Shown: positions 1 through 16,288 of the stretch, one piece after another | Numbering within the stretch: the first letter of the stretch is position 1 | Layout: each line of letters begins with the position of its first letter | Assembly: GCA_029856525.1 (NCBI GenBank) | Contig: JAHQXC010000017.1 | Coordinates: 1 to 20,890, forward strand | DNA: 20,890 nt | Direction of reading: 5' to 3' | Origin: Candidatus Odinarchaeia archaeon | GTDB lineage: Archaea; Asgardarchaeota; Odinarchaeia; Odinarchaeales; Odinarchaeaceae | Program-made: the position numbers and the translations under genes | Notes under the pieces: model-generated | Told to the model about the DNA's origin: nothing | What the model saw: the letters and a program-made list of their open reading frames with translations, nothing else | Database searches by the model: none

Positions 1-274
1 GTGAGCTACTCCTCGACTAAAGTCGGGAGCTTCCAGCGTTCGTCTGAGGCTTTACGCCTTCAGTTACACGTGCTGGTTCGCGGGGCTCACAGCTCCGCCA
101 TCCCATGCCTCTCATTAAGGCATAGGCTATGTTTATGCATGCGTTCAGATCTCGGTTATAGATTAGCTTACATCAAGGGAACATCCCTAAAACTTTTTAA
201 ACACGCATGGATATTTAAGTTTCTGCCCATTCATCCCCTAACTGAAGTTAGGGGTTCTCTGGGCACCCTTTTTT
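1..274 (-). mobile_element. Non-autonomous miniature IS200/IS605-family (tnpB-type) element: left end + internal deletion + tnpB 3' stub + right end
   Basis: Minus strand reads ...TTTAT|AAAAAAGGGTGCCCAGAGAACCCCTAACTTCAGTTAGGGGATGAATGGGCAG... and ends ...GAAGCTCCCGACTTTAGTCGAGGAGTAGCTCAC. Left-end hairpin CCCCTAAC-TGAA-GTTAGGGG at 235-254, with outer stem TGCCCA/TGGGCA at 224-265. Right-end hairpin at 9-29 and terminal TCAC at 4-1. A TnpB RuvC-III motif lies in between. The left boundary and the TTTAT target motif (275-279) are inferred. Confidence 0.85.
17..172 (-). pseudogene. tnpB: C-terminal remnant of TnpB (Zn-finger end + RuvC-III motif)
   Basis: Manual translation of 172->17: CKLIYNRDLNACINIAYALMRGMGWRSCEPREPARVTEGVKPQTNAGSSRL*. 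RDLNACINIA matches the TnpB (D/N)RDxNAxxNI motif. It is preceded by an in-frame TGA (175-173) and has no N-terminal part. Confidence 0.8.
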
Positions 275-296
275 ATAAAATTTAAAGTTTCGAGGC

Positions 297-1631
297 GTGA
301 AATTGAAAACAGCTCTTAGCATAGCCGGCTCAGATCCTACTAGCGGCGCAGGCGTCGCCGCTGATCTGATTACATTCAACTCTCTAGGAGTTCACGGTTT
401 CTACATTATAACAGCTTTAACCTCCCAGACGTTAAGTAAGGTTGTTAGAATCAGGGTGGTGGATTGCGAAGACTTCGCCGTTCAGATGAAAACGGTTTTC
501 GAAAACTTTAAGATTAACGCTGCGAAAACAGGTGTCATAAGCACACCCTGCCAAGCCAGGCTTACTAAAGAATATGTTGAAAAATATAATATACCGGTTA
601 TCGCTGACCCTGTTTTCAAAGCCAGCGACGGCACGGTTTTCTCAGATGAAGATACTATCAGAGAACTTGTAACAGGTTTATATCGGAAGGCGAGTCTTCT
701 AACACCTAATATTATAGAAGCGGAGAGGCTTTCAGATTATCAGATTCGAAAAATAGATGATGTTTTAGAAGCCTCCTATATTCTGCTGAAAAAAGGGTTT
801 AAAGCTGTTCTTATAAAAGGCGGCCATTTAAATGATTCAAGAGAGGTCTTCGACGTATTGAATATAGGCGGAGATGTTAAAATTTTCAGGAAAAACAGGC
901 TTGATTGGTTGAAAATCCATGGTTCAGGTTGCATATTATCGGCAGCTATAACCGCTTATACAGCGCAAGGCTACTCGATTATGGAGGCGGTTATGCGCGC
1001 TGAAGAGTATTTTAGCAAGATCGCCCACCACCCTTTAAACATAAATAGCAGTGTAGGGCTTCTTCAACCCTTTAAGATGTTAACCGATTGCGCGGAGAAA
1101 ATAGAGATAATTAAAGAGATGAATCAAGCAACCGGCTTTTTAAACGAGATACTTAAAGCTGGGGAATGGGATATACACGGTGAAATAATCCTCTTATATT
1201 CGATAAATAAACCAGTGGATGCAAGCGACGTAGTTTATCTAAAACTTTTGAAGGAGTATCCGGAAAAGTCTCTGAGATTAAATTATCCTGTTTTCGGCGG
1301 AGATGACTTAACGAGTAGGATATTACTCGCGGTTAAAAAATTTCTACCCAGTACTAAAGTAGGCTTATGCCTTCCTTACAGTGAAACAGTCTTCAAAGGA
1401 TTAGAGGAGAGCGGTGAATACCAGTATATTAACCTGTATTTCAAAGAGTTTTCGATTAACGAGTCGAATCTACTGGAAGAAACTTTTAAAAACATACTCG
1501 GCGAGCAGGGTAACCGGCGCTTAGACTTTCTAATATTATTCTCGCACATGAAACCTGTTAAAATAATGGTTTTAGGAGAAAACGGTTTCAATTCAATTTA
1601 TAAATTAGCTAAAATTTTAAAAAAGAAGTAA
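297..1631 (+). CDS. thiD: Hydroxymethylpyrimidine/phosphomethylpyrimidine kinase (ThiD) with C-terminal degenerate ThiN-like domain
   Basis: AGSDPTSGAGVAADL, LLTPNIIEA, KGGH and HGSGCILSAAI are ThiD/PfkB motifs. The ~175-aa C-terminal extension loosely follows the ThiN pattern (DVV..., FGG..SRILL, KIMVLGE). GTG start. Confidence 0.85.
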   Translation: MKLKTALSIAGSDPTSGAGVAADLITFNSLGVHGFYIITALTSQTLSKVVRIRVVDCEDFAVQMKTVFENFKINAAKTGVISTPCQARLTKEYVEKYNIPVIADPVFKASDGTVFSDEDTIRELVTGLYRKASLLTPNIIEAERLSDYQIRKIDDVLEASYILLKKGFKAVLIKGGHLNDSREVFDVLNIGGDVKIFRKNRLDWLKIHGSGCILSAAITAYTAQGYSIMEAVMRAEEYFSKIAHHPLNINSSVGLLQPFKMLTDCAEKIEIIKEMNQATGFLNEILKAGEWDIHGEIILLYSINKPVDASDVVYLKLLKEYPEKSLRLNYPVFGGDDLTSRILLAVKKFLPSTKVGLCLPYSETVFKGLEESGEYQYINLYFKEFSINESNLLEETFKNILGEQGNRRLDFLILFSHMKPVKIMVLGENGFNSIYKLAKILKKK

Positions 1632-1644
1632 AGAATTTATAAGA

Positions 1645-3348
1645 TTACATCATGTCCATTCCGCCGCCCATTCCACCGCCCATTCCCTGTCCGCCACCGG
1701 CTCCTGGCCCACCCTCCGGCATGCCACTCGGTTTCTCAGCGGTTTTCGCGGCGATGACGTCGTCGATTCTCAGAATCATTATTGCAGCCTCACTAGCAGC
1801 TTTAATTATCTGTTTTTTAACCACGTAAGGTTCGATTACACCTGCTTTATACATGTCTCCAGGTTTCCCTGTATCAAGGTTCACCCCGTATGCGACTCCC
1901 TTAGCTTTATCTTCGTGTTTAGCTCTAAGCTCAACTAATATATCCATCGGGTCATATCCGCCGTTTTCAGCTAATGTAAGCGGGATAACTTCCAGGGCGT
2001 CAGCGAATGCTTGAATAGCTAGCTGTTCCCTTCCACCTACAGTGCCAGCATAGTCTCTCAGTCGTTTAGCGATCTCTATTTCAACAGCCCCTCCGCCTGG
2101 TACTATTTTACCTGTTTCAATCACATCGCGGACCACGCATAAACTGTCGTGTAAAGCTCTCTCAGCTTCATCTACAACGTGGTCGGTGCCTCCTCTGATA
2201 AGTATGCTAACAGCCTTCGGGTTCTTGCATTCTCTCACGAATATAAGTTCACCGCCTGCGATCTTAAGCTCTTCAACAACCTTAGCGTAGCCTAGCTGTT
2301 TCTCTGTTAAATCATCTAGATTGGAGACCATTACACCGCCTGTGGTTTTAGCAAGCTTCTCCATGTCGCTTCTTTTAACTCTTCTAGCAGCTAGTATCCC
2401 TGCTTTAGCTAGGTAGTGTTGGGCTAGGTCGTCTATGCCTTTCTCGCAGAAAACCACGTTAGCGCCAGATTTAACTATTTTATCAACGTAGCCTTTAAGT
2501 ATTTTCTCTTCCTCTGCTAGAAAAGCTTTCATCTGCGCTGGATCAGAGATCCTGATCTGAGCGTCGAACTCGGGTTTTTCAACCTCTAAAGGAGCGTCTA
2601 TTAAAGCTATTTTAGCATCTTCAACCCGTTTCGGCATACCCGGGTGGACTACTTCTTTATCTATGATCATACCTCTTACAAGCTCTGTTTCAGCTAAGCT
2701 TTTACCATGTTTTTTAACCACGTTGATAAGATCTATATCAGCTTTTAGAACACCATCGTCTTCTCTAGCGATTTGTTTAACCGCCTGAACCGCTAGATTA
2801 GCGAAGTGTTCTTTAGCTGTAGCCAGCGATTTACTATTCATAGATGTGATAGCGATTTTTTTAAGCGTCTCATCGTCATCAGGTTTAACAGGTTGAGCTA
2901 ATTCGTTTAAAATTTCAACAGCTTTATCAGCAGCTTTCTTATAGCCGCTCACGATTATTGTCGGATGAATATTCTGATCGAGAAGATCTTCAGCCCGTTT
3001 CAGAAGCTCGCCTGCTAACACTACTATGCTGGTTGTTCCGTCACCGACCTCGTCATCTTGGGTTTTAGCGACTTCAACCATCATTTTAGCAGCTGGATGC
3101 TGGACATCCATCTCGTCAAGTATTGTTGCACCGTCATTGGTGATTACAACATCGCCTAGACTGTCAACCAGCATTTTATCCATTCCACGTGGGCCTAGAG
3201 AGGTTCTAACAGCTTCAGCTATAGCTCTAGCAGCGCTTATATTAGCTAGTTGAGCTTCTTTTCCACGTGAACGGGTGGTTCCTTCTTTAAGAATTAACAC
3301 GGGTGTGTTTCCTATTCTACCTAGTTGAGCTTGCGCTGACATAGTCAT
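1645..3348 (-). CDS. ths: Thermosome (group II chaperonin) subunit
   Basis: [30 protein letters not shown] motifs and a Gly/Met-rich tail ([17 protein letters not shown]). Confidence 0.98.
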
Positions 3349-3393
3349 ATTCCCCCTAACAATTTGATTTGAATATAAAGTAAAATCATTTTT

Positions 3394-3422
3394 GAAGTAA
3401 TTATACTTCTATATAAATCTTT
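3394..3422 (-). promoter_or_regulatory. Thermosome promoter: BRE/TATA followed by a palindromic operator-like site
   Basis: Minus strand AAAGA-TTTATATA (TATA at 3417-3410), immediately followed by the perfect inverted repeat GAAGTA-N4-TACTTC (3409-3394), about 45-60 nt upstream of the start codon. Confidence 0.6.
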
Positions 3423-4787
3423 CTATTTTAATCTCTGAACCGGGAAGTTTCGACTAACCCAAGCTGAAAACCCGCCTATAAGCCCGAAAACCCTGGTGAA
3501 ACCTGCTCTAAGCAGTATACTCACAGCTATACCTGTTTTAAACCCTGAATCACAATAAACATATATATCTCTGTCTCCAGGTAAAATAGATAATGAACTT
3601 TTAAGATGACCGAGATAGATATTATAAGCCCCTTGTATAAAACCTAGTTCACTATAGGTTTTAGAATCTCTAACATCTAAAAGGAATATTTCGCTATCAG
3701 ACAATTTATTCTTAAGCTCTTCAACAGAAACGGAGAAGGTTCTAGCGTATTCCCCGCCACTCTTAAACCATTCAGATATGTTATTCAAATATCCCTCTAT
3801 ATTATCAAATCCAAGTCTGTAAAGATATCGGAGAATATGGTCTAATAGCTGGTTTTCATCTTTGACAATTATAATCGGCTGCTCATAGTCTAAAACCCAT
3901 CCAGCGAATAAAGGTAAACCAGAAGCCCAAATATTAATACTACCAGGGATATGAGCGGTGTAAAAAGCTTCAGGAGGCCTCACATCAACTATTTGAGAAT
4001 TATCAAAATATTTTTTAAGTTCACCTATCTTTAAAGGATGAGGCTTAGGCAGATCGTTTAAAGGAGGGCCAATACGATTATATAATTCCATTCGCGTAAA
4101 ATAAGGCGGCCGCTCCAACCGTTCTTGAATTTTATAAGCCATAAAATCGTTTTTATCCTTTAATTGAAGAATCCTATTAGTTTTCTTCTCATATCCAATA
4201 GTTGTGAACGGCTTGACGCTTATACTACCACCACATACCGAGCCTGCGCCATGCCCGGGGAAAACTATCACACCATCCCCTAGATTTAAAAATTTATCGA
4301 ATAAACTTTCATACAAGGCTTCTGAGAGTCTTCTAACATGGCTTTCACCGTATAAATCGGTTCTACCCACATCACCTGCGAATAAACTATCCCCTGTGAA
4401 AGCGGCGTAAACCTCTTTTTCACCGGTCTCCTTCAAAGTATAGGTTAAACTTTCATCAGTGTGCCCAGGGGTTTCTAGAATACCTATCTCGGCAGAGCCG
4501 ATTTTAAAAACATCCCCTTCATCAACACGTTCACCGTATCTGAAATCTAGTCTAGATCCATGATATATTGGGGAGCCTGTTAACTTAGATAAATTTAATG
4601 ACCCTATAGTAAAATCCTCGTTTCTATGCGTCTCGAAAATGGCGACTATCCGCTGATTATATTTTTTAGCTAAATCAACATAAACTTCAACATCTCTCCG
4701 AGGATCAATTATAACAGCTTCGGTTCCTGAACCAATATAATAAGAGTTGTGGGCTAATCCCTCGGATATTATTCTTTCAATTATCAT
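3423..4787 (-). CDS. MBL-fold metallo-hydrolase (persulfide dioxygenase/ETHE1-like) fused to two rhodanese domains
   Basis: ETHRNEDF (variant HxHxDH), TPGHT, FTGDSLF and PGHG motifs. Rhodanese domains VDVRPPEAF..HIPGSINI and LDVRD..IQGAYNI, with a catalytic Cys loop (YCDSGFKT) only in the last domain. Confidence 0.85.
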   Translation of the reverse strand: MIIERIISEGLAHNSYYIGSGTEAVIIDPRRDVEVYVDLAKKYNQRIVAIFETHRNEDFTIGSLNLSKLTGSPIYHGSRLDFRYGERVDEGDVFKIGSAEIGILETPGHTDESLTYTLKETGEKEVYAAFTGDSLFAGDVGRTDLYGESHVRRLSEALYESLFDKFLNLGDGVIVFPGHGAGSVCGGSISVKPFTTIGYEKKTNRILQLKDKNDFMAYKIQERLERPPYFTRMELYNRIGPPLNDLPKPHPLKIGELKKYFDNSQIVDVRPPEAFYTAHIPGSINIWASGLPLFAGWVLDYEQPIIIVKDENQLLDHILRYLYRLGFDNIEGYLNNISEWFKSGGEYARTFSVSVEELKNKLSDSEIFLLDVRDSKTYSELGFIQGAYNIYLGHLKSSLSILPGDRDIYVYCDSGFKTGIAVSILLRAGFTRVFGLIGGFSAWVSRNFPVQRLK

Positions 4788-4796
4788 ACTAATTCT

Positions 4797-5675
4797 CTAC
4801 CTAGGTTTACTTCCAGTAATTGTCTCGTTCCCAGGATAAGAAACCCACTCGGTGAAGGAGCCTTCATATATTTTCACTTTCGGGTATTTTAGAAACCATT
4901 TAAATAAGATAAACTCATTAGTCGCCTCCCTGCCTGTTCCGCATGAGCAGATCACAGTTTTATCCGGGGTCGCTCCAACTGATCCTACAATGTTTTTTAA
5001 TTCTCTAACAGGTTTAAGCAAACACTTATTCTGATCGTTCATAAGATTAATCCATGGAAGATTAACCGCTCCTGGGATATGCCCTGGTTTAATCCATGGA
5101 CCCTGCCCCTCATAAAATTTAGCAGGTCTCGCATCTAAAACTATAACATCCTGGTTATCCTTAATTTCTTTAAACTCATCGTATTCTACAAAATATTCTC
5201 CTTTAACAGTAGCTTCAAAATTAGAGGCTGTTAATTTAGGGAATACTTTAGTTAAAGGTCTACTCTCCTGCTTCCACTTATCTATCCCGCCGTCTAATAT
5301 GTAGATGGATCTATGGCCGAAACGCGCAAGAGAGTAGGCGACCATTGTCTGATCCAGACAGTCTCCTTGGCCTTTGAATCCTCCTATTCCAGTATAAACA
5401 ACTACAGTTTTATTTTCTTCAACACCTATACTACTGAATAATTCACTAGCGACCCTGCGACTGACATACTTTCCTGGCATACCATTTGAAGAATTCCTTA
5501 GAAGTTTATCACAGAAGTAAACCGCTCCTGGTATATGCTCTAAGATATAATCGTGGATATCTGGTTGACAGTCTAAAATTAGTAAATTTTCATCATTTAA
5601 ATGATCTTGTAACCATTGAGGTGAAACCCATTTTATAACTCCTGATCCTTCAGGATAGGGCTTATTATCAAACAT
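4797..5675 (-). CDS. Tandem-domain sulfurtransferase (rhodanese / 3-mercaptopyruvate sulfurtransferase family)
   Basis: VSPQWL, HIPGAV twice, ILDGGIDKW, LDARP, active-site loop CSCGTGREA, C-terminal YEGSFTEW signature. Confidence 0.92.
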   Translation of the reverse strand: MFDNKPYPEGSGVIKWVSPQWLQDHLNDENLLILDCQPDIHDYILEHIPGAVYFCDKLLRNSSNGMPGKYVSRRVASELFSSIGVEENKTVVVYTGIGGFKGQGDCLDQTMVAYSLARFGHRSIYILDGGIDKWKQESRPLTKVFPKLTASNFEATVKGEYFVEYDEFKEIKDNQDVIVLDARPAKFYEGQGPWIKPGHIPGAVNLPWINLMNDQNKCLLKPVRELKNIVGSVGATPDKTVICSCGTGREATNEFILFKWFLKYPKVKIYEGSFTEWVSYPGNETITGSKPR

Positions 5676-5800
5676 TTAAACCCTCCATTTTTTATTAACA
5701 TAAATATTTTTTTAATATTTAAATTTGACCACGCGAAAAGAGTAAATATTTAATATAGTGTTGAATCGATACAAACATAAAACTAAATTAAAGTGGTCAG

Positions 5801-7555
5801 ATGTTAACAGAGGAGATAAGTAGAAAAATATTAATACACGCATTAGAAAATGCTTTAAAATTCAACGGTAAAGCTAATCCGAAAGCTGTTTTAGGTAAAA
5901 TTCTAGCAGACAACCCCCAGCTTAAAAATGAAATAGAATCACTTATGAAATCTATTAATGAGATAACCAGCTTAGTTAACTCGATGAGCCTAGAAAAACA
6001 GAGAGAGGAATTCGTGAAGCTGACGGGCGGTGAGATTAGTAAAATTAAACGTAAAGAGGGGAAGCAGCTTCCACCTCTACCTAACGCGGATAAATACAGT
6101 AAGATTATTATGAGACTGGCCCCCTATCCTTCAGGTCCGCTTCATATAGGCAATCTCCGAATGGTAATACTAAACGATGAATATGTTAAACGCTATAAAG
6201 GAGAGCTTTACCTTGTATACGATGACACTATCGGCAGCGAGGAGAAGGAGATTCTACCGGAAGCCTACGATTATATTAAAGAAGGATTAGATTGGCTTAA
6301 CGTTAAAGTTGATAAAATATTCTATAAATCTGACCGCCTCCAAATATTCTATGATTGGTGTAGGAGACTGCTAAGCGAAGGCAAAGCATATGTCTGCACA
6401 TGCAACGCTGAGGTCTGGCGGCAACAATATAAATTGAAGAAAGCAGAGTGCCCTTGCAGATCTAAAACAATTACCGAAAACCTGGATAAATGGGATAAAA
6501 TGTTAAACGGATTTTACAGTGAAGGGGAGGCGGCGGTTAGACTAAAGACTAGTATGAGTGACCCGGACCCTGCGCTTAGAGATCACGTAATCATGAGAAT
6601 ATCTGATAAACTTCACCCTAGAGTCGGCGGTAAATACCGTGTTTGGCCGCTCCTAGAATTTTCATGGGCTATAGACGATTATCTGTTGAATATCACCCAC
6701 ATACTGAGAGGAAAAGATTTAATTAAAGAGGATAGAGTTGAAGAAATAATATGGAGTTTACTCGGTGTACCTAAACGTGAATTCATACACTACGGGCGTA
6801 TAAGATTCCAAGGATTATCTTTAAGCAAATCTAAGTCGGCGAAATACGTTAAAGAAGGAAAGTACATGGGGTGGCGGGATCCAAGAACATGGAGTCTTCA
6901 GTCACTTCAAGCTAGAGGGTTTAAACCTGAAGCGATAAGAGAAGCGATCCTAGATTTAGGTTTAAGCCTAGCTGACATTGAATACAGTCCTGAAATATTA
7001 TACTCTTTCAATAGGAGAATTATAGATCCTCTGGTTAACCGTTTATTCTACGTAGAAAATCCTGTGAGACTTGAAATCACCGGCTTAGAAACCACTGAGT
7101 TAAAAGGGGAACCGCCAAACCATCCTGATTTCCCAGAGAGGGGTAGAAGAAATATAACTCTAAGTGTTGAAAATAATTCAGCGAGTGTTTTAATCTCGAG
7201 ATCAGACGCTGAGAAACTGACGGTCGGAGAGAAAATAAGATTGAAAGATCTTGTAAACGTTCAAATAACCTCTAAAGGTGAGATAAGCCAAGCCAGATAT
7301 TTAAGTAAAAGCATTGAGGAGGCTAGAGAGGAAGGTATAAAGAAAATAATCCAATGGGTACCAGTCCATTCGAATATAAAAGTTGAGGTAATAATGCCGA
7401 ACGGTGGTATAAGCCGCGGTTTAGCTGAATACGAGGCTAGTAAACTTAAAGTCGAGGATATAGTTCAATTTGAGAGATTCGGATTCATACGCGTCGACGA
7501 AATTGAGAGAGAAAACCATACTGTACGGATAAAAGCCTTCTACTCACACAGCTAG
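5801..7555 (+). CDS. gltX: Glutamyl-tRNA synthetase, archaeal type
   Basis: RLAPYPSGPLHIGN (HIGH-like), ITHILRGKD, LSKSK (KMSKS-like), WRDPR; archaeal N-terminal extension and beta-barrel C-terminus (QFERFGFIRVD). Confidence 0.96.
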   Translation: MLTEEISRKILIHALENALKFNGKANPKAVLGKILADNPQLKNEIESLMKSINEITSLVNSMSLEKQREEFVKLTGGEISKIKRKEGKQLPPLPNADKYSKIIMRLAPYPSGPLHIGNLRMVILNDEYVKRYKGELYLVYDDTIGSEEKEILPEAYDYIKEGLDWLNVKVDKIFYKSDRLQIFYDWCRRLLSEGKAYVCTCNAEVWRQQYKLKKAECPCRSKTITENLDKWDKMLNGFYSEGEAAVRLKTSMSDPDPALRDHVIMRISDKLHPRVGGKYRVWPLLEFSWAIDDYLLNITHILRGKDLIKEDRVEEIIWSLLGVPKREFIHYGRIRFQGLSLSKSKSAKYVKEGKYMGWRDPRTWSLQSLQARGFKPEAIREAILDLGLSLADIEYSPEILYSFNRRIIDPLVNRLFYVENPVRLEITGLETTELKGEPPNHPDFPERGRRNITLSVENNSASVLISRSDAEKLTVGEKIRLKDLVNVQITSKGEISQARYLSKSIEEAREEGIKKIIQWVPVHSNIKVEVIMPNGGISRGLAEYEASKLKVEDIVQFERFGFIRVDEIERENHTVRIKAFYSHS

Positions 7556-7648
7556 CAGTTTAAAAAATAAGAAATAAAGCTGTTCAAATGAAACTATTTA
7601 ATAAAAAAGATGATATATTTCTTATTAACAGTGCGAAAAGGGGTTTCT

Positions 7649-8722
7649 ATGAGCGATATAAAGTCCATGTTGAAGAAACTAACAGAAGTATACGCGCCAA
7701 GCGGATGTGAAGAACCGGTAAGAGAGATAATAACTAGCATGCTGGAAGGCTATGTTGATGAATTACATATTGATAGAATGGGGAATCTGATAGCTTTAAA
7801 AAAAGGATTAAGCGGAAAACCTAAGATTCTATTAGATGCGCATATGGATGAAATTGGCATGATCGTTAAATACATTGACGATAAAGGTTTTATAAGATTC
7901 TCCTATACCGGCGGATTCTTCGATCAAACGGTGTTAAATCAACGCGTAGTAATATTAACAAAAAATGGCCCTATACCAGGTGTTATAGGCGCTAAACCAC
8001 CCCACTTGATGACTCAAGAAGAGAAAGAGAAAATTGTGAAAAGAAGCGATATGTTCATAGATATAGGGGCTGAAAACAGGCTTGAGGCTGAGAGATTAGG
8101 GGTTAGAATAGGGGATCATATAACGTGGACAGCCGGCTTCATCGAGTTAGCTGGTGATAAATTAGTTTCTAAAGCCTTTGATAACCGAGTTGGCTGCGCT
8201 ATTCTAATAAAAATATTACAGGAATTAAAAACAGATACACCGGTTTACGGTGTCTTCACAGTCATGGAGGAGATAGGTTTACGGGGAGCTAAAACAGCGG
8301 CTTTCAAAATAGAACCGGATACCGCTCTAGTCTTCGACATAGCTGCAGCTGGAGATCATCCTAATATTAAAGAAGGTGAAGCTCCTATTAGAGTAGGCGG
8401 CGGTCCTGTTATCGGAGTCGCAGATGGAAGCCGCGCGAATCTAGGAGGCGGCTTAATAACACATCCTCTGATTAGAAGAATATTAATCGAAACCGCTGAA
8501 GAGAATAATATTCCATACCAGCTCTACGTGTTTGAAGGTGGGACAACTGATGGAACAGTGATCGCTCTATCAAGAGCGGGTGTCCCAACAGGGCTTATAT
8601 CAGTACCGGTCAGATACGCTCATACAACTAGTGAACTGTTAAGCCTGTCAGATGTAGAGAACAGTATTAAACTAACAGAGTTGGCGATTCATAAAATAGT
8701 TGAAGCGTTTTCGAAAGGTTAG
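7649..8722 (+). CDS. M42 family (TET/Frv-like) aminopeptidase
   Basis: AHMDEIG, KAFDNR, EEIGLRGA, GGTTDG and RYAHT metal-ligand motifs. Start moved from 7610 to ATG 7649, which follows a purine-rich AAGGGG site. Confidence 0.92.
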   Translation: MSDIKSMLKKLTEVYAPSGCEEPVREIITSMLEGYVDELHIDRMGNLIALKKGLSGKPKILLDAHMDEIGMIVKYIDDKGFIRFSYTGGFFDQTVLNQRVVILTKNGPIPGVIGAKPPHLMTQEEKEKIVKRSDMFIDIGAENRLEAERLGVRIGDHITWTAGFIELAGDKLVSKAFDNRVGCAILIKILQELKTDTPVYGVFTVMEEIGLRGAKTAAFKIEPDTALVFDIAAAGDHPNIKEGEAPIRVGGGPVIGVADGSRANLGGGLITHPLIRRILIETAEENNIPYQLYVFEGGTTDGTVIALSRAGVPTGLISVPVRYAHTTSELLSLSDVENSIKLTELAIHKIVEAFSKG

Positions 8723-8729
8723 ATTAAAT

Positions 8730-9413
8730 ATGAAATATCTAAAATCTAGAGATGAAAAGTGGAGCGCCCTTCACTCTATAATTATGTGGGTGTTCGGAGT
8801 TTTCATCTTAATCTCTTTCAGCTATCTAAGTATTTTAAATGAGTGGTTGGCTAGGATAACAGTAGAGATTATAATAGGGTTAACGCCTTTTCTAGTCGTT
8901 TTAACATTTTTTAATAAAAATTTCGATGAGCTAGGTTTACTTAAACCGAGTTTGAAAGAGACGATAACAGGAGTAGGATTCGGTTTACTAGGTGTTTTAT
9001 CAGGTTTCCTAGCCTTTAACTTAGAGGTGTTAATCCTAGGCGGTTATCCTATAGGATACCATGAATTCCAGTTAAAATTCACACCGCTCCAGTTAACTGA
9101 TTTAGTAATCTGGATTGCTTTCTCAGTTATAATAGTTGCTCCATGCGAGGAAATATTTTCAAGAGGCTTCATTCAAAAAGGATTACAGAATAGTGGAGGA
9201 GTGCTCTTCGGTTTAATCGCTTCATCCATACTATTCGGTTTAATACACATAGAACCTTTTAGAATTCTCCCGAATACTGTGCAAGGATTCACACTCGGAG
9301 CCGCGTATATTCGCTCTAAGTATAAGACAAGCGTCTCTATTATATCACATGCAACGTTAAATACGAGCATATTCATTTTAATGTTCTTTCTCCCATATTA
9401 CTTCGGGCTGTGA
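8730..9413 (+). CDS. CPBP (CAAX/Abi) family intramembrane glutamic endopeptidase
   Basis: EEIFSRG, FGLIH and HATLN motifs in a multi-TM protein. ATG 8730 preferred over 8700, which would overlap the upstream gene. Confidence 0.88.
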   Translation: MKYLKSRDEKWSALHSIIMWVFGVFILISFSYLSILNEWLARITVEIIIGLTPFLVVLTFFNKNFDELGLLKPSLKETITGVGFGLLGVLSGFLAFNLEVLILGGYPIGYHEFQLKFTPLQLTDLVIWIAFSVIIVAPCEEIFSRGFIQKGLQNSGGVLFGLIASSILFGLIHIEPFRILPNTVQGFTLGAAYIRSKYKTSVSIISHATLNTSIFILMFFLPYYFGL

Positions 9414-9545
9414 ACCACCCTCGCTTTCACTGAAATGTGAAGTAATAGTTTATTCTTGCAGGTGGCTTAGGCAGTCTAAGCCTCACATCTCTTATATTAG
9501 ACTGCTAGCTTTCACCCGCTATCGAGGGGGCTTCCACCGAAGAAG
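9410..9545 (-). mobile_element. Probable IS200/IS605 right-end (reRNA/omegaRNA-like) remnant with no ORF
   Basis: Minus strand ...TTTAA|CTTCTTCGGTGGAAGCCCCCTCG-[~100 nt structured]-CGAGGGTGGTTCAC. It has the same GAAGC-C-rich stem...G-rich stem-TCAC architecture as the right end at 1-35. Boundaries inferred. Confidence 0.6.
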
Positions 9546-9553
9546 TTAAAAAT

Positions 9554-9904
9554 TTATTTAAACAGGTCCCTTTGATAGAATAAGTAGACTACTATAATTA
9601 TACTTATTATAAGAGAGATTAAGCCACCGAATAAGATAGTCACCACTATGTTAATTATGTTTACAACTACAACTAGCAGCCAAGCCCAGTATTTTAATCC
9701 CATCAGCGATAAAGCTGCTAGTAAAATCACGATCCCCCAGATTAAAGATATTAATCCGGCTATAGTTAGCTCTGCGAAAAACCATCCAGGCATGAACGCT
9801 GCTCCTGCTAGCAGGCTCGCACCGCCAATTATATCAAGTAAACCGCCTATAATCATCAGCACCGCTATAACGATTACACCTAAAGGTGTCCTTTTAGCTG
9901 GCAA
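9554..9904 (-). CDS. Small multi-pass membrane protein, unknown function
   Basis: 116 aa, about four hydrophobic segments, TTG start preceded by GAGGG. Confidence 0.75.
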   Translation of the reverse strand: MPAKRTPLGVIVIAVLMIIGGLLDIIGGASLLAGAAFMPGWFFAELTIAGLISLIWGIVILLAALSLMGLKYWAWLLVVVVNIINIVVTILFGGLISLIISIIIVVYLFYQRDLFK

Positions 9905-9956
9905 GTTGAACCCTCAATCAAGTTTTTAATATTTAAACTATCAATCACCTTAGCAA

Positions 9957-10024
9957 GGGGTTCCTACCTCACCGAGAAGAGGTCTCCTCGTTACAGATAT
10001 CTCAGGACCCCCAAGCCGCGGCTT
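9957..10024. other. GC-rich structured intergenic element (candidate small RNA, leader or repeat remnant)
   Basis: Closing stem GGGGTTCCT (9957-9965) / AGGACCCCC (10004-10012), inner hairpin ACCTC/GAGGT, adjacent 12-bp palindrome AAGCCGCGGCTT (10013-10024) next to TTTATATA. Confidence 0.3.
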
Positions 10025-10120
10025 TATATAATAATATTAATTTATCGCTTTTATAAGATTACCGTTTTCCGACTCCTCTATATATTGAGGGAGATTCATC
10101 GCTGTTAAGTTAAAAACCGT

Positions 10121-10924
10121 TTATTTAAAATATTTTGAAAAATTCTTTTCCAGAGCGTCTTTTAATAAAGGTGTTTTCAACCTCGCCTCTTCAACCTCTC
10201 TTAGATTAATTAACACTCCTTCACTTCTCTCAGCTTCATGAAGTGAAAGTTTAACCTCGCCTGTTGGTGAGAGAACCAAACTATTCCCGCCGAAGGTGAT
10301 TCCGCTTTCAACACCAACCCGGTTAACATATACTATGAAACACTGGTTTTCAACAGCTCTAGCTGGGAGAATATATTTAAAACGTTGAATAGACTCTCTT
10401 GGAGTAGCTGATAACACTATTATACATTCAGCTCCGTTTAAGGCTTGAAAACGGCTTAACTCCGGGAAGTTAATATCATAACATATTTGAATTCCTATCC
10501 TAAAATTTTCAAAAACCACTGGTTGAGGTGAATCACCTGGATTGAAGAATTCTTTCTCTCTGAAAACCCAGAAATTCGGAAGATATATCTTCCTATATTT
10601 CGCGATCACACCTTTTTTACCGATTAAAACAGCTGTGTTAAAAAATCTCTTTTTCATTGTGTCAGATTCAACCATACCAGTTAAAACATACACGCGGTCA
10701 CTTAACCTTTGAGAGATTAAATCAGTCACCTCTCCTGGGATAGTCTCAGCTAGGCGGGGGAGCATAGAGCCGCAGTTATAGCCGGTTATAAAAAGCTCAG
10801 GGAATACATGTAACATTAAGCTTTTTCCATTAAATTTTTCAAGTGAATTGAGAAGCTTCAAAATATTATATTCTTTTTCACCTAGAATCGGCTCTAACTG
10901 ATGAACGATTATTTCAAGAGACAA
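10121..10924 (-). CDS. Carbon-nitrogen hydrolase (nitrilase superfamily amidase)
   Basis: Catalytic triad motifs FPELFITGY (E), YRKIYL (K), ICYDINFPE (C); also RAVENQ and FGGNS. TTG start overlaps the upstream gene. Confidence 0.92.
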   Translation of the reverse strand: MSLEIIVHQLEPILGEKEYNILKLLNSLEKFNGKSLMLHVFPELFITGYNCGSMLPRLAETIPGEVTDLISQRLSDRVYVLTGMVESDTMKKRFFNTAVLIGKKGVIAKYRKIYLPNFWVFREKEFFNPGDSPQPVVFENFRIGIQICYDINFPELSRFQALNGAECIIVLSATPRESIQRFKYILPARAVENQCFIVYVNRVGVESGITFGGNSLVLSPTGEVKLSLHEAERSEGVLINLREVEEARLKTPLLKDALEKNFSKYFK

Positions 10925-11444
10925 TAGAATTACACCTCTTTTTCTTACTAATCAGGTAACCCGTCAGCCCGCCTAAAACACCTATCCAGCTGGGTTTCAA
11001 GCCGCCTAGTATATAGTAGCTAAGCTGATAGATCATGCTACTATTCACTAGAAAACTTATCTCAAACCCGTATAGCGCCCCCCAATAGATGACCCAGCTT
11101 ATTAACCCTAACAGGATAGCAGAGTTTAAACCTGTTAAAACACTTTTTAAGTAGTTATCGGATATAAAACCGGCTGTTAAACCGGAGGCGAACCATACTA
11201 TAAGATTGAAATAAGGATAGGCTTCAAAATTTAGGAGAAGACCTTTAAGATAAGGGTTACTTGTATGTAACGGATCCCCGCCGAGCAAGTATAATAATTG
11301 TAGTTCAATATAGGGGATTCCCCTAATGGTGTTAGCGAGCCCTAACGGTAATAATTCAGCCGGCAGATTCACATATAATGCTAGAATCCAGGTTAATGTT
11401 AATGCAACCGTTATGAAAACTATTATCGGTATGATTATACGCAT
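10914..11444 (-). CDS. Hypothetical integral membrane protein
   Basis: 176 aa, about four hydrophobic segments, basic C-terminus; overlaps the nitrilase gene by 11 nt. Confidence 0.75.
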   Translation of the reverse strand: MRIIIPIIVFITVALTLTWILALYVNLPAELLPLGLANTIRGIPYIELQLLYLLGGDPLHTSNPYLKGLLLNFEAYPYFNLIVWFASGLTAGFISDNYLKSVLTGLNSAILLGLISWVIYWGALYGFEISFLVNSSMIYQLSYYILGGLKPSWIGVLGGLTGYLISKKKRCNSIVS

Positions 11445-11544
11445 AGCAGTTCACTGCTATTTAATGTTTATCCGAAACATTTAAGAATTATTAAATGGAA
11501 AAATTATAAAAAGCTTTTACAGCCGTAAAATAGTGGTGGAGTTC

Positions 11545-12624
11545 ATGGGTAAAATTAAAGTAGCTGTAGCCGGTTTAGGTAACTGCGCTTCCGCTTTAAT
11601 ACAGGGAATAGAGTTTTATAAAAACGTTACAGGCTCTGAGAAAATAGTCCCAGGTTTAATGAACCCGAGCATTGGAGGCTATCTTCCAAGAGATATTGAG
11701 ATAGTAGCGGCGTTCGATGTTAACCGGAATAAAATTGGGAAAGATATCTCAGAGGCGATTTTCATAGATAACTGTACGGTGAAGTTTGCCGATGTCCCGA
11801 GAAAAGGGGTGAAAGTTGTCCCAGGCCCGATATTAGACGGAGTCGCCCCACATATGGTTAAATCATTTAACTGCTATGATGAAAAAGAGATGAAGCCTGT
11901 TAATGTCGCAGACCATTTAAAAGAGACCGGCGCTGAGATACTTATAAATTATTTACCTGTAGGAAGCGCTCAAGCATCGAGAGCATACGCGAAAGCTGCT
12001 TTAGAAGCTGGATGCGGGTTCATAAACGCGATCCCCGAGTTCATTGCATCCGATAAAGGGATAGGAGATGAATTTGAAAAAAGAAATCTCCCCATAGCAG
12101 GGGATGATGTGAAATCCCAGCTTGGAGCTACAATACTGCACAGAGCATTAGTGGATTTATGCGTTAATAGAGGCGTTCAAATACTGGAGACATACCAGTT
12201 AAACGTCGGCGGTGACACAGACTTTGAAAATATGACTGTAGAGGAGCGGTTGAAAACTAAGAGAATAAGTAAAACAACCGCGGTTACAAGCATACCACCA
12301 TATGAGATACCTACCAGAATAGGCCCAAGTGATTATATACCATTCCTAAAAAACAGGAAAATCTGCTATATCTGGCTTAAAGGACTTTTATGGGGCCAGG
12401 TTCCAGCCACTATTGACGTTAAACTATCAGTTGAAGACGCGCCTGACTCCGCTGGTGTAGTGGTCGACGTGATAAGATGCATGAAGCTAGCTTTAGATAG
12501 GGGTATAGGAGGACGGCTTATAAGCATATCCGCTTACTCGTTTAAACACCCGCCGGTATTTGTACCGGACAGTGTAGCTAAAACATGGGTTCAAGAATTC
12601 ATAGAAGGGAAGAGGGAACGCTGA
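11545..12624 (+). CDS. ino1: myo-inositol-1-phosphate synthase (archaeal/bacterial short type)
   Basis: GLGNCAS NAD-binding motif, INYLPVGS, GDDVKSQLGAT, LNVGGDTDF, DAPDSAG. ATG 11545 follows GGTGGAG. Confidence 0.95.
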   Translation: MGKIKVAVAGLGNCASALIQGIEFYKNVTGSEKIVPGLMNPSIGGYLPRDIEIVAAFDVNRNKIGKDISEAIFIDNCTVKFADVPRKGVKVVPGPILDGVAPHMVKSFNCYDEKEMKPVNVADHLKETGAEILINYLPVGSAQASRAYAKAALEAGCGFINAIPEFIASDKGIGDEFEKRNLPIAGDDVKSQLGATILHRALVDLCVNRGVQILETYQLNVGGDTDFENMTVEERLKTKRISKTTAVTSIPPYEIPTRIGPSDYIPFLKNRKICYIWLKGLLWGQVPATIDVKLSVEDAPDSAGVVVDVIRCMKLALDRGIGGRLISISAYSFKHPPVFVPDSVAKTWVQEFIEGKRER

Positions 12625-13308
12625 TCAAATTATTTTAAGCAGGCTAGGAATATCCTTAACGCTTAAAACAATAGCGTCAGGGTGAACACTCCTAAGAATA
12701 TTATAGTCTAATCCCCCGCTTAAAACACCTATAGTCCAGCAGCCTAGTCTTTTACCGGAGAGAATATCAGTTACATAGTCGCCGACAACCACACACTCCT
12801 CTGGTTTAATATTGAATTTTTCAATTAACAGTTTAAAACTACGAGTTTTCTGAAGAGCTTCTTCACCCGTCGACTTCGAGTATAGATTATTCGCTAAAAT
12901 CTCGTCGAATAAACCGTTTAAACCATGCTTTTCAAGCTCTAATCTAACTAATTCAGAGTCTATTATTCTACCTGTAACCACTGATAGAAGATATTTTCTA
13001 TATTTGAGAAGTTTAAGAGCCTCCACCACGCCTTCAAAAGGTTTCTCATCAGCTCCTTTGAATTCATGATAGATTTGGAGAAACTCTGGGAGAAAACGCT
13101 GTTTTACTTGGAGAATAATATCACCTAGACGGTTATTCTTATACAGTACCCTGAACTCATCTCGACTAATCTTTTTTAAACCGTATTTTTCAGCTAAAAA
13201 CATGAAAACGTTATAAAACCTATCAGAGGTATCTATAAGCGTCCCATCTAAATCGAATATAAATAGTTTAACTCGATCTCTCAAATTCTCCAAGCTAATA
13301 GATACCAC
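12625..13308 (-). CDS. HAD-superfamily hydrolase (phosphoglycolate-phosphatase-like)
   Basis: Motif I FDLDGTL, motif II VVTG, motif IV VGDYVTD. Stop codon directly abuts the ino1 stop (tail to tail). Confidence 0.88.
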   Translation of the reverse strand: MVSISLENLRDRVKLFIFDLDGTLIDTSDRFYNVFMFLAEKYGLKKISRDEFRVLYKNNRLGDIILQVKQRFLPEFLQIYHEFKGADEKPFEGVVEALKLLKYRKYLLSVVTGRIIDSELVRLELEKHGLNGLFDEILANNLYSKSTGEEALQKTRSFKLLIEKFNIKPEECVVVGDYVTDILSGKRLGCWTIGVLSGGLDYNILRSVHPDAIVLSVKDIPSLLKII

Positions 13309-13418
13309 CTACACCAGACTATTATAGCTTCGCGACTGCAAACTAGAGTTTACCAGTAAATTTTAAGACACGAAAATATATTATCTTTATTGAATATTAA
13401 ACTACCACCGTATAAAGA

Positions 13419-13569
13419 CTGATCTTATCCCCTCGCACACCGGCTGTTAACAAGTACACTGTGAGAGTTTAGGCTGGTTCACATCAACCCTGCTTTCCAT
13501 CATATACCGAGAAGTCCGTCACCTATATTCACGCCGCTGAAGCCGTCAGCCTCTCTTCTAGCGGCGAAT
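13419..13569 (-). other. Structured GC-rich intergenic island; candidate degenerate IS200/IS605 remnant or ncRNA
   Basis: Hairpin CGCCGCTGAAG...CTTCTAGCGGCG (13532-13566). The minus strand ends GCGAGGGGATAAGATCAG, resembling IS605 right ends of the GGGG-N-TCAG type. No credible ORF. Confidence 0.35.
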
Positions 13570-13687
13570 TTATAAAATACACCAATAAATATTTAATTTT
13601 AAATTAATAAATTATTGAAAAGAGTAATCGATAAAGTTAAAAGCCTGCGTTAATCTAAATAAACGGGTTATTGAAAGGTGGTTTAAT

Positions 13688-13858
13688 TTGCTAATTGACA
13701 GAGTTAAATGCGGGGTTTGCTTCGGATGTGCTGCTGTCTGTCCGTTTGACGCTTTAAGAGCCACTGATAAAGAGATAATAGTTAACTCTGATAAGTGCAC
13801 TAACTGCGGCGTATGCCGGAAGATTTGTCCTGTGGGGGCGATAACTATTGAAGTTTAA
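13688..13858 (+). CDS. 2x[4Fe-4S] ferredoxin (56 aa), missed by the ORF track
   Basis: MLIDRVKCGVCFGCAAVCPFDALRATDKEIIVNSDKCTNCGVCRKICPVGAITIEV*: two CxxCxxCxxxCP motifs. TTG start after GGTGG; overlaps the GGR start. Confidence 0.95.
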   Translation: MLIDRVKCGVCFGCAAVCPFDALRATDKEIIVNSDKCTNCGVCRKICPVGAITIEV

Positions 13859-15068
13859 AGTTGACGTTGCTATTGTAGGAGGGGGCCCGGCTGGAAGCTC
13901 AACAGCTTTAACAGCTGCTAAACTAGGTTTAAACGTTTTATTAATTGATAGAAAAGCGCATATCGGCGTTCCAGTTCAATGCGGGGAAGCCGTGGGTAAA
14001 ACCGGGCCGAGTATAGCGGAGATAGATATACCTAAAGAAGCGATTAGAAATCCTATAAGAGGTTTCAGAATATACAGTCCAAGTAATATTACAGTAGATT
14101 ACGCTAAACCGCAACCTGACGGGTATATAGTGGATAGAAGAGTCTTCGATAAAGAGCTTTTCATTAAAGCAGCTGAAGCCGGCGCAGAAACATTGATTAA
14201 CACTGATATAAAAGAACTTGTGTTCAAGGACGGTAAAGTATCCGGTTTAATCGGCGTTAACGATAACGGTAGAGTTGAAGTTGAGTCGAAGATAGTTATC
14301 GGAGCTGACGGTGTTTTCAGCATAATCGCGAAGCTGGCTGGTTTACGTAAATACGCTAAGCTATCTGATTTAGACGCAAGCGTAGGCTATGAAATGTGTA
14401 ATGTGGAATACGATGACCCGGAGTTAATGGAGTTTTATATGGGTAGAAATATAGCGCCTAGAGGTTACGTCTGGATCTTCCCTAAAGGAGAAAAGCGTGC
14501 TAATGTAGGAATAGGAGTAGGCGCGCAGGATGGTACGCGCACCGCCTTAGACTATATGAAAACTTTTATGAAAGAGCACCCTATCGGAAGAGAGAAATTA
14601 AAAAACGCAAAGATAGTCGAGTACAGGGTTGGAGCGATCCCCTTAGGCGGGCCGAATGAAAAAAATATATTAGACAACCTAATGTTAGTAGGCGACGCTG
14701 CAGGTCAAGTTCACCCTATCACAGGCGGTGGAATCGGTTACGCGCTTGTATGCGGAAGTATCGCTGGGAAAGTCGCTGCTGAGGCGATAGAAGCCGGAGA
14801 CACCAGTGAGCGTATGCTCCTAAACTATGAGAGAAGATGGCGTGAGAAATACGGTGAAGAATTCGAAAAAATGTTAAAATTACGCGAGCTACTCGAGAAA
14901 GCAGAGGATAAAACACTAGACCAGCTTGCAGAGATCCTTAACGGCCAGAATATAGTTGATTTAACCGCGGGTAGGAAAATATCTATTTTATTCAGCGCTG
15001 TTAAAAAACATAACAAGGAATTATTAAATCTCCTCAACGGTTTCAGACAGCTTAAACTAATCCAGTAA
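13848..15068 (+). CDS. Geranylgeranyl reductase family protein (digeranylgeranylglycerophospholipid reductase-like)
   Basis: GGGPAG FAD motif, CGEA, GADG, PRGYVWIFPKG (YxWxFP), LVGDAAGQVHPITGGGI. Confidence 0.92.
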   Translation: MKFKVDVAIVGGGPAGSSTALTAAKLGLNVLLIDRKAHIGVPVQCGEAVGKTGPSIAEIDIPKEAIRNPIRGFRIYSPSNITVDYAKPQPDGYIVDRRVFDKELFIKAAEAGAETLINTDIKELVFKDGKVSGLIGVNDNGRVEVESKIVIGADGVFSIIAKLAGLRKYAKLSDLDASVGYEMCNVEYDDPELMEFYMGRNIAPRGYVWIFPKGEKRANVGIGVGAQDGTRTALDYMKTFMKEHPIGREKLKNAKIVEYRVGAIPLGGPNEKNILDNLMLVGDAAGQVHPITGGGIGYALVCGSIAGKVAAEAIEAGDTSERMLLNYERRWREKYGEEFEKMLKLRELLEKAEDKTLDQLAEILNGQNIVDLTAGRKISILFSAVKKHNKELLNLLNGFRQLKLIQ

Positions 15069-15083
15069 TAGAAGAGGATAAGC

Positions 15084-15686
15084 GTGGGTTTAGGGAGATT
15101 ACTGTTAATATCGCTATTGGTAATATCTATTTCAAGCCTGCTCTCATATTTTATAACCCCGGATATTATAAAACTAATATATACTGTTAAATACCAGTCT
15201 TACGGGAAACCTGAGCTCGGATATTTCATAGCTGTATTAGAGAGTCTTATTCAAGGTTTAAAAGACGCGAGGATAATAATAATAGTCGCAGCTACGTCTC
15301 TGCTGGCCGGCTTCCTTTACTTGAAGAATAACTCTTGGATAGCAGGTTTTTCCACTTATATAATACTGTTAATTCTACTTTTAATCTTCTACTACCGTTT
15401 TTTCAACGGGTTCAACATACCGGATGCCCCGCTGCTCATTATCAATATTTTATTCACAGCCACTATAGGAGGAGTCTCTTCTAGTATACCGGGAGTAGCC
15501 GTCTACTATAGAAGAAGAAGGGGATTGGAAAACGTTCAAACCGTCGAGTATACTGAGACTGCAACCACGTGCCCGGAATGCGGGGTGAAATATGATTCTA
15601 AACCTTTAATCTGCGTTAAATGCGGGTTAAAGTTGAATCAAACATCTAATATCGAATTAGAATCAGACGATAATTGTGCAAAATAA
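15084..15686 (+). CDS. Membrane protein with C-terminal zinc-ribbon
   Basis: About four TM segments, RRRR stop-transfer, then CPECG-x9-CVKCG. GTG start after GAGGA, 15 nt after the GGR stop. Confidence 0.75.
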   Translation: MGLGRLLLISLLVISISSLLSYFITPDIIKLIYTVKYQSYGKPELGYFIAVLESLIQGLKDARIIIIVAATSLLAGFLYLKNNSWIAGFSTYIILLILLLIFYYRFFNGFNIPDAPLLIINILFTATIGGVSSSIPGVAVYYRRRRGLENVQTVEYTETATTCPECGVKYDSKPLICVKCGLKLNQTSNIELESDDNCAK

Positions 15687-15752
15687 AACTTATATAAAAT
15701 AAAAATGTTTTTAAAAATACGAAAGAATTAAATACCGGATAAAACCAAAAAT

Positions 15753-15948
15753 GTGACATCAATCTGGCGGTGTAGGAATTGGTAGGTGGACATTTTCCAA
15801 CACAAATATTCAAATAAGCTCTCACATGATTTTTTAGAAGCCCACCGTGTAAATGTCATTCACTCAGAGGAATACAGTCACTGTGAAAAATTAAGCGGCG
15901 TTAAGAATACGCTATATTTTTTAAGAGTTAACTACTATAATCCGCCAG
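15753..15948 (-). other. Long-range-paired intergenic island upstream of lysW; candidate IS200/IS605 right-end derivative or structured leader
   Basis: CTGGCGG (15764-15770) pairs with CCGCCAG (15942-15948), and GTAG/CTAC extends the stem. The minus strand ends CCGCCAGATTGATGTCAC. Confidence 0.3.
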
Positions 15949-15988
15949 TAAAAATTATTATAAAACAATTAAATGGAGGTTTAAATAT

Positions 15989-16162
15989 ATGGCGAAAGGT
16001 GTCTGTCCTGAATGCGGAGCTGAAATAGAGATCGAAGACCCTGTTGAAAAAGAAATCGTAGAATGCGAAGAATGCGGTGTTGAATTAGAGGTTTCAAAAG
16101 TAGACGGAGATGAAGTTGAATTCGAAGTAGCTGAATCAGAAGGCGAAGACTGGGGCGAGTGA
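15989..16162 (+). CDS. lysW: Amino-group carrier protein LysW/ArgW (57 aa), missed by the ORF track
   Basis: MAKGVCPECGAEIEIEDPVEKEIVECEECGVELEVSKVDGDEVEFEVAESEGEDWGE*: zinc-ribbon CxxC pairs, very acidic, terminal EDWGE. SD GGAGG upstream. Confidence 0.97.
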   Translation: MAKGVCPECGAEIEIEDPVEKEIVECEECGVELEVSKVDGDEVEFEVAESEGEDWGE

Positions 16163-16192: not shown

Positions 16193-16282
16193 ACCTCTTC
16201 TCCGAGATCGGAGGAGAGGTCTCTAAAATATTTATTACAAGCGGAGGTGGAGGCGTCTTCTCTAATTGTAAGAAGACACGCC
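16193..16282 (+). other. Two stable hairpins in the lysW-lysX spacer
   Basis: ACCTCTTCTCCG-AGAT-CGGAGGAGAGGT (16193-16220, 12-bp stem with one G.U on the + strand) and GGCGTCTTCT...AGAAGACACGCC (16252-16282). Confidence 0.6.
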
Positions 16283-16288
16283 GTTAAT

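Follow-up and report, generated by a model that had tools for sequence, protein, structure and literature searches.

The stretch of DNA analyzed here (the window; 20,890 nt) is the entire contig C125 of a Candidatus Odinarchaeia archaeon genome (G000; 1.32 Mb, 127 contigs, 93% complete), and it harbors 4 protein-less derivatives of IS200/IS605 insertion sequences (IS), located at 1-274, 9410-9545, ~9923-10109, and 13397-13571, all on the minus strand. We identified a total of 67 such loci in the genome, most of which point away from a predicted replication origin. The 4 islands are very probably non-autonomous IS200/IS605 relics of the palindrome-associated transposable element (PATE) type, copied in trans and inserted with a replication-fork bias, and this reading gives the best joint explanation of the observations. 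Window genes were 90-94% identical to their counterparts in Odinarchaeota metagenome-assembled genomes. The comparison set comprised 3 further genomes of the same genus, among them G002, a single closed contig of 1,418,269 bp; the relatives L007 and L008 were used for orthologous loci.

Three families of gene-less IS200/IS605 derivatives

Iterated profile searches of the genome, run to convergence, yielded 6 loci of family A (counted after merging copies cut by contig ends), 10 of family B, and 50 of family C, and a reversed-genome decoy search returned nothing below E=0.4. The 3 families are mutually unrelated, and each derives from a different tnpB parent, namely the intact C93 element for family A, an L046-like element for family B, and the L100, L102, and L103 elements for family C. 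The initial annotation had tentatively read 5 minus-strand octamers, at 1, 9410, 13419, 15753, and 16159, as the ends of one family of IS derivatives. All 5 are present, and those at 1, 9410, and 13419 belong to true elements; those at 15753 and 16159 do not, the idea of a single family fails, and a fourth real element, at ~9923-10109, had been missed. The heavy colonization by open reading frame (ORF)-less derivatives that it envisaged is borne out by the 67 loci. That all 5 islands form one family, or are chance tetranucleotide matches, has next to no probability. TCAC or TCAG does occur every 128 nt per strand, 165 times in the window, as easily by chance as the annotation had itself cautioned, and 2 of the 5 sites are indeed coincidental, but the other 3 have genomic copies as well as empty sites in relatives, and no window island matched the model of another family. 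A within-window repeat search found no family common to the 5 islands, families emerging only at the genome-wide scale, and searches of the window for Rfam families and for tRNAs returned no match. With 4 copies in 21 kb, the window exceeds the mean of 1.1 (post hoc p=0.03); 4 copies also occur on each of 2 other contigs.

The elements contain no transposase or nuclease gene, only C-terminal TnpB stubs, and they occur as repeated, dispersed copies of one deletion derivative. Targets are TTTAA for family C and (T)TTAT for families A and B, kept beside the left end without duplication. Among the called right ends, TCAC closes 6 of 6 in family A, 7 of 7 in family B, and 22 of 24 in family C; TTTAA stands before 37 of the 45 left ends of family C, and the motif used to call the ends of this family itself favors its TTTAA and TCAC counts. 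A target on the left side only, a TCAC right end, and the lack of a gene are the defining marks of PATEs (PMC10055086). Right ends of the window copies at 13397 and 9923 have decayed to TTAA. Subterminal hairpins are present in family A, the family-C right end is 83.6% paired, and the hairpins of the B and C copies found in the window have decayed.

The family-A PATE at 1-274 (minus strand; fold z=-6.6) is 96% identical to both ends of an intact tnpB element at C93:25961-27305, and the island at position 1 is, as annotated, a true right end. The copy consists of a left end with a hairpin and a TFB recognition element (BRE)/TATA box, a 1067-nt internal tnpB deletion, a C-terminal tnpB stub, the omega-RNA scaffold, and a right-end hairpin ending in GCTCAC. 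Because the same 1067-nt deletion junction was found in 3 complete family-A copies, one derivative was probably copied in trans. The target motif TTTAT (275-279, minus strand) is present on the left side only and is not duplicated. The contig end coincides exactly with the right end of the element, the true 3' flank being on contig C78, and in the empty site of G002, TTTTAT is fused directly to the C78 flank. In metagenome contigs, family-A ends adjoin family-C tnpB elements (L098:13-128 and L103:6654-6728), pointing to co-occurrence of the 2 families in other organisms.

Family C is represented in the window by 2 copies. The 136-nt element at 9410-9545 (minus strand; fold z=-3.1; TTTAA target at 9546-9550), whose right end had been placed correctly, belongs to a short, decayed subtype. 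Independent support comes from single-sequence nhmmer matches (best E=2e-7); the model score is E=2e-12, but the copy itself is in the training set. L007 and L008 lack it at the orthologous position. At 9410-9413, the family-C right end provides the TGA stop of a CAAX-protease gene (8700-9413), for which L007 uses its own TAA. The second copy, at 9923-10109 (minus strand; 9923 approximate, as the right end is decayed; TTTAA target at 10110-10114), gave E=3e-17 with a hidden Markov model, a partly circular value since the copy had joined the iterated model, and E=8e-5 with model R1, built without this copy. R1 uses sequence only, because RNAalifold on the whole family-C alignment gave no consensus pairs. 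In the L007 and L008 alignments, gaps stand where the window has extra DNA, at ~9935-10110 and likewise at ~9410-9550 and 13310-13580.

A metagenome scan recovered full-length family-C parents with a left end, promoter, and right end matching the minis. L100 and L103 carry the left end, a small upstream ORF, and tnpB, and L102, the sole tnpA-bearing parent found, carries Y1 tnpA and tnpB. The small ORF (L100:3264-3389, minus strand, and its equivalent in L103) encodes a 41-aa zinc-ribbon and lies between the left-end promoter and tnpB. In G000, an intact tnpA and tnpB IS605 element with its own ends (C44:7986-9870) is nested in an older family-C copy.

The 175-nt family-B PATE at 13397-13571 (minus strand) is 1 of 10 copies in the genome. 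The annotation was right in taking 13419 as the mark of an element and wrong about where the element ends: AGATCAG (13419) sits inside the terminal hairpin, and the true right end has decayed to GGTAGTTTAA at 13397. The element shows no fold signal (z=+0.4) and is absent from the orthologous locus in L007 and L008. The family-B scaffold is related to those 3' of TnpB genes in other Asgard genomes, and the copy on contig C121 retains a tnpB zinc-ribbon stub of 55 aa that shares 51% identity with the L046 TnpB.

Insertion sites were private to G000, and sister genomes hold 0-2 weak matches. Clean empty sites could be read for the window's A copy and for 2 C copies, the remaining sites being too diverged to read. 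Contigs from sequencing runs aligned on the window contained no joint skipping an element, a result that weighs neither way. The closed G002 chromosome, searched whole, had no Y1 tnpA match and no TnpB zinc-ribbon match, and it holds almost no minis, with 1 decayed family-A remnant at 573.5 kb compared with the 67 loci in G000. C-like minis were also identified in other Asgard genomes, with up to 31 matches in one.

The G000 elements are in themselves unremarkable, being further examples of the known PATE kind. PATEs were reportedly first defined in Haloquadratum. Those of Geobacillus stearothermophilus encode omega-RNAs and need TnpA and TnpB in trans (PMC10055086); the elements described here are likewise gene-less, with hairpinned ends, a left motif, a TCAC right end, and an omega-RNA region, and differ in their Asgard host, their 3 families, their ~65 copies in 1.3 Mb, and the failure to find a cognate TnpB for families B and C in the assembly. 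By description, they also resemble SMN1 of Sulfolobus islandicus, a 320-bp element mobilized by the ISC1733 transposase (PMC3718332): both are archaeal gene-less minis moved in trans, mobilization having been observed for SMN1, whereas here we infer it. TTTAA is an archaeal IS605 target, as in the S. islandicus IS605 elements with SisTnpB1 (bioRxiv 10.1101/2023.03.06.531077). Family C shares with these TTTAA by the left end and an omega-RNA at the right end; unlike them, the family-C parents, known here from sequence, encode TnpB without the C-terminal zinc finger.

Element orientation and the predicted replication origin

Element pairs on the same contig lie on the same strand in 31 cases and on opposite strands in 10 (p=0.003). 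Every locus was projected onto G002 via its flanks, and orientation was scored from left end to right end relative to a pair of origin recognition boxes (ORBs). In G002, one inverted pair of canonical ORBs flanks an AT-rich stretch next to cdc6 (622.65-622.88 kb; C1:622653-622883); the G000 pair is located at C1:10173-10608, and a single pair, 2-3 kb from cdc6, was identified in all 4 Odinarchaeum genomes. Element orientation flips at this pair, with 53 of 67 loci pointing away from the origin in the automated scoring and 54 after fixing 1 flank mapped to a moved segment (p=4.5e-7). Orientation is thus not random with respect to replichore, and the same-strand bias that the annotation had noted in the window extends genome-wide beyond chance and fits lagging-strand insertion. 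Counted by contig, the split is 28 versus 6 (p=2e-4); an unconstrained scan placed the best switch point at 550-675 kb on G002, spanning the ORB pair; and G000's own contig skew alone gave 44 of 66 loci pointing away (p=0.009). In G002, gene orientation switches at 576 kb and the strand-corrected third-position skews at 608-627 kb. The PATE top strand lies on the predicted lagging-strand template in the same proportion, 54/67. The window itself is on the arm where the minus strand is the predicted lagging template; its 16-kb stretch of elements would be co-oriented through lying within one replichore, and 4 of 4 on the minus strand would be expected ~40% of the time.

Elements of different families adjoin at C82:20201-20453, C77:1-365, and C111:10330-10667 of G000, the C82 and C77 pairs back-to-back at near-palindromic AT-rich targets and the C111 pair in tandem. 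Some loci face the origin because of such side-by-side pairs.

Transcription, or the strand distribution of target motifs, might set the orientation of the PATEs in place of the replication fork. Genes do point away from the origin in 57.5% of cases, and the bias is strongest where both neighbors are co-oriented with the element (17/18), but relative to the upstream gene there is no bias at all (31 same, 31 opposite), and of the 25 elements with convergent or divergent neighbors, 19 are directed away from the origin (p=0.007). Only 50-55% of target motifs occur on that strand, and 54/67 lies above both 54.5% (p=7e-6) and 57.5% (p=6e-5). This explanation is largely refuted, and we regard it as very unlikely.

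Under replication-coupled insertion, at least 3 tnpB-carrying IS605-group elements would have invaded this Odinarchaeum lineage after its split from the sister species, and internal deletions would have left the left end, the promoter, the tnpB 3' tail with the omega-RNA scaffold, and the right end. A Y1 TnpA would have copied these minis in trans by "peel and paste" of a single strand, in which the excised top strand is joined 3' of TTTAA in family C, or of (T)TTAT in families A and B, and the target is not duplicated. Insertion would have been mostly into the lagging-strand template, presumably through coupling to the fork, so that the elements would point away from one bidirectional origin. 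Families B and C appear to be old and decaying, and family A appears to be recent.

In bacteria, insertion of IS608 and ISDra2 targets the lagging-strand template (PMC5027513). The PATEs are alike in having the top strand on the predicted lagging template in ~80% of loci and unlike in their setting, which is an archaeal replisome in place of a bacterial one with DnaN and Ssb. A limited literature search found no archaeal demonstration of lagging-strand-template targeting. We consider it likely that the minis are a fossil record of replication, left by IS605 transposition coupled to the lagging strand of an Asgard replication fork, and that they mark one active origin of the ORB/cdc6 type. Several points weigh against this interpretation. 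The origin position rests on sequence prediction, and the 127 contigs were ordered on a sister chromosome, with 6 of 122 contigs mapping in mixed orientation. One arm shows a weaker bias than the other (28/39 versus 25/28), the sole TnpA in the assembly (the intact Y1 tnpA at C44) has ends unlike those of families A, B, and C, and the published skew-based origin of LCB_4 was placed elsewhere.

The paper on Ca. Odinarchaeum yellowstonii LCB_4 picked a skew minimum as the potential origin and set it as position +1. In Odinarchaeum, skew has the opposite polarity to that of bacteria, the cumulative GC maximum being at the predicted origin. If G002, with a skew minimum at its first bases, is the LCB_4 chromosome, ~620 kb separate position +1 from the ORBs, the inferred terminus is no more than ~130 kb away from it, and the inverted polarity may have misled the published call.

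Omega-RNA potential of the families

The annotation further proposed that the islands, if expressed, form a distributed set of guides or exapted regulatory RNAs. In that reading, the minis would be maintained as dispersed omega-RNAs steering TnpB, or some other protein, to targets in the host or in viruses. In family C, 34 of the 42 copies examined keep a TATA-like box, and the scaffold stems with a 4-bp terminal pseudoknot, seen in the better copies, have 89.5% of cells paired with few double changes; for family A, an intact cognate TnpB exists, and the last 123 nt of the copies are those nearest to the parent. The family-C promoter and scaffold, however, are what any deletion sparing both ends leaves, and the covariation may be inherited from active parents. 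For family A, the differences from the parent are common to copies, and the contig-end copies are possibly assembly-collapsed. No family-B or family-C tnpB was identified in the 93%-complete assembly, many C copies are without a 25-nt scaffold piece or without the right-end hairpin, median identity between copies is 66% in family B and 54% in family C, and the sites are not common to sister genomes. Guides compared with the genome gave no match longer than 11 nt next to a transposon-adjacent motif (shuffled guides reach 14), with a mean of 7.8 versus 7.0 for shuffled guides; viruses and plasmids were not searched. A working set of guides or regulators is therefore highly improbable, and the islands are better read as PATE relics.

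Only family A could plausibly still yield usable omega-RNA. Its parent at C93 is a tnpB-only element with an open 426-aa TnpB frame in which the RuvC D-E-D and zinc-finger motifs are intact. The last 123 nt of the copies are less diverged from this parent (9/246 versus ~33/302 elsewhere, with end artefacts removed), several copies having differences in common and contig-end copies being possibly collapsed in assembly. Family-A copies, including 1-274, may thus make an omega-RNA that loads the C93 TnpB in trans, which would cut empty alleles and aid retention. The kept promoter, the scaffold fold unchanged from the parent, and the intact TnpB motifs argue for this, and there is a precedent (PMC10055086); the copies on C29 and C71, however, are altered at 2 nt in the first hairpin of the scaffold, and scaffold identity of the contig-end copies may reflect the collapsed assembly. 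We give such self-retention a serious chance, somewhat short of even. It is compatible with the PATE-relic explanation and, if so, is known behavior. The family-A TnpB, omega-RNA, and TTTAT motif are ready for a nuclease assay.

The lysW leader, neighboring features, and implications

The islands at 15753 and 16159, which the annotation had counted among the IS ends, belong to the lysW-X-Y-Z-J-K operon. Neither has other genomic copies or a match to any family model, and both align straight through in L007 and L008, their features being present in the relatives. The region 15728-15988 (plus strand) is the promoter and ~235-nt leader of this operon, not an IS, and occurs as a single copy in each of the 4 Odinarchaeum genomes, with a TATA-like box at 15728-15734 and a Shine-Dalgarno motif at 15975-15979. 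Transcription likely starts near 15753, ~25 nt past the TATA-like box, and the 15753 octamer is the reverse complement of this start. With 30% GC, the intergenic region is not GC-rich, and its minus strand gives no fold signal (z=+0.6). The lysW carrier-protein gene follows at 15989-16162 (plus strand; Pfam PF21344, E=8.5e-13). Its TGA stop (16160-16162), within the GTGA of the 16159 island, creates the fifth "TCAC," where L007 has TAA.

A long-range stem in the leader pairs CTGGCGG (15764-15770) with CCGCCAG (15942-15948), with a probability of 0.78-1.0 in 4 of 4 genomes. An upstream ORF from 15786 has its frame open over 54-60 codons in the same 4 genomes, the indels, 3 and 18 nt long, preserving the frame (p=3e-4 by column shuffling, a post hoc observation), and ends in Tyr-x-Pro-Pro on the 3' strand of the stem; there is no synonymous excess and no sign of selection on the peptide. 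Ahead of it, in the same frame, a 10-codon ORF with 2 Arg and 2 Trp codons begins at 15753, and the TAG between the 2 ORFs is CAG in L007. For amber read-through of this TAG, ARAGORN showed no CUA/Pyl line (with crude parsing), and pylS was not searched. The first 90 nt are near-invariant in the 4 genomes, and in the comparison with G002 the longest identical run places the leader 26th among 214 aligned intergenic stretches, a high but not extreme rank. The pattern fits translation mattering more than the peptide product and is a lead only.

With its structured leader and upstream ORFs before an amino-acid operon, the region resembles bacterial leader-peptide attenuators and the lysine riboswitch, but differs from them in having no Rfam match, covariation, or Lys run and in being Odinarchaeum-only among the genomes searched. 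Rfam covariance models gave a best E=2.1 to an unrelated family, and a lysine riboswitch was rejected for lack of an Rfam match. No covariation was detected among the 4 close sequences and no Lys-codon run in the leader, the leader ORF had no relative among proteins of 44-140 aa, and no look-alike leader was identified before lysW in the other Asgard genomes searched or in viral contigs. A new translation-coupled attenuator of the lysine/arginine operon, in which the upstream ORF would run into the 3' strand of the long-range stem, is a tentative and rather unlikely interpretation; it makes the lysW leader a testable candidate for archaeal attenuation.

Between lysW and lysX, a hairpin at 16193-16220 (plus strand), not an IS, is kept with sequence changes in relatives, and it is followed by a second conserved hairpin at ~16253-16283 (plus strand). 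By eye, the first is like a family-C end, but it matched no family model. These hairpins may act through differential stability or partial termination favoring the carrier protein. Elsewhere in the window, translations at 3423-5675 (minus strand) read as a metallo-beta-lactamase-fold/rhodanese fusion beside a sulfurtransferase-like gene, probably involved in sulfur handling.

For the biology of the lineage, the orientation of the PATEs would extend the bacterial IS200/IS605 insertion rule to an Asgard archaeon. In an uncultured lineage close to the root of eukaryotes, it would help to locate the start of replication without recourse to base skew, and it suggests that the LCB_4 origin called from skew sits near the terminus, owing to the inverted polarity of the skew here.

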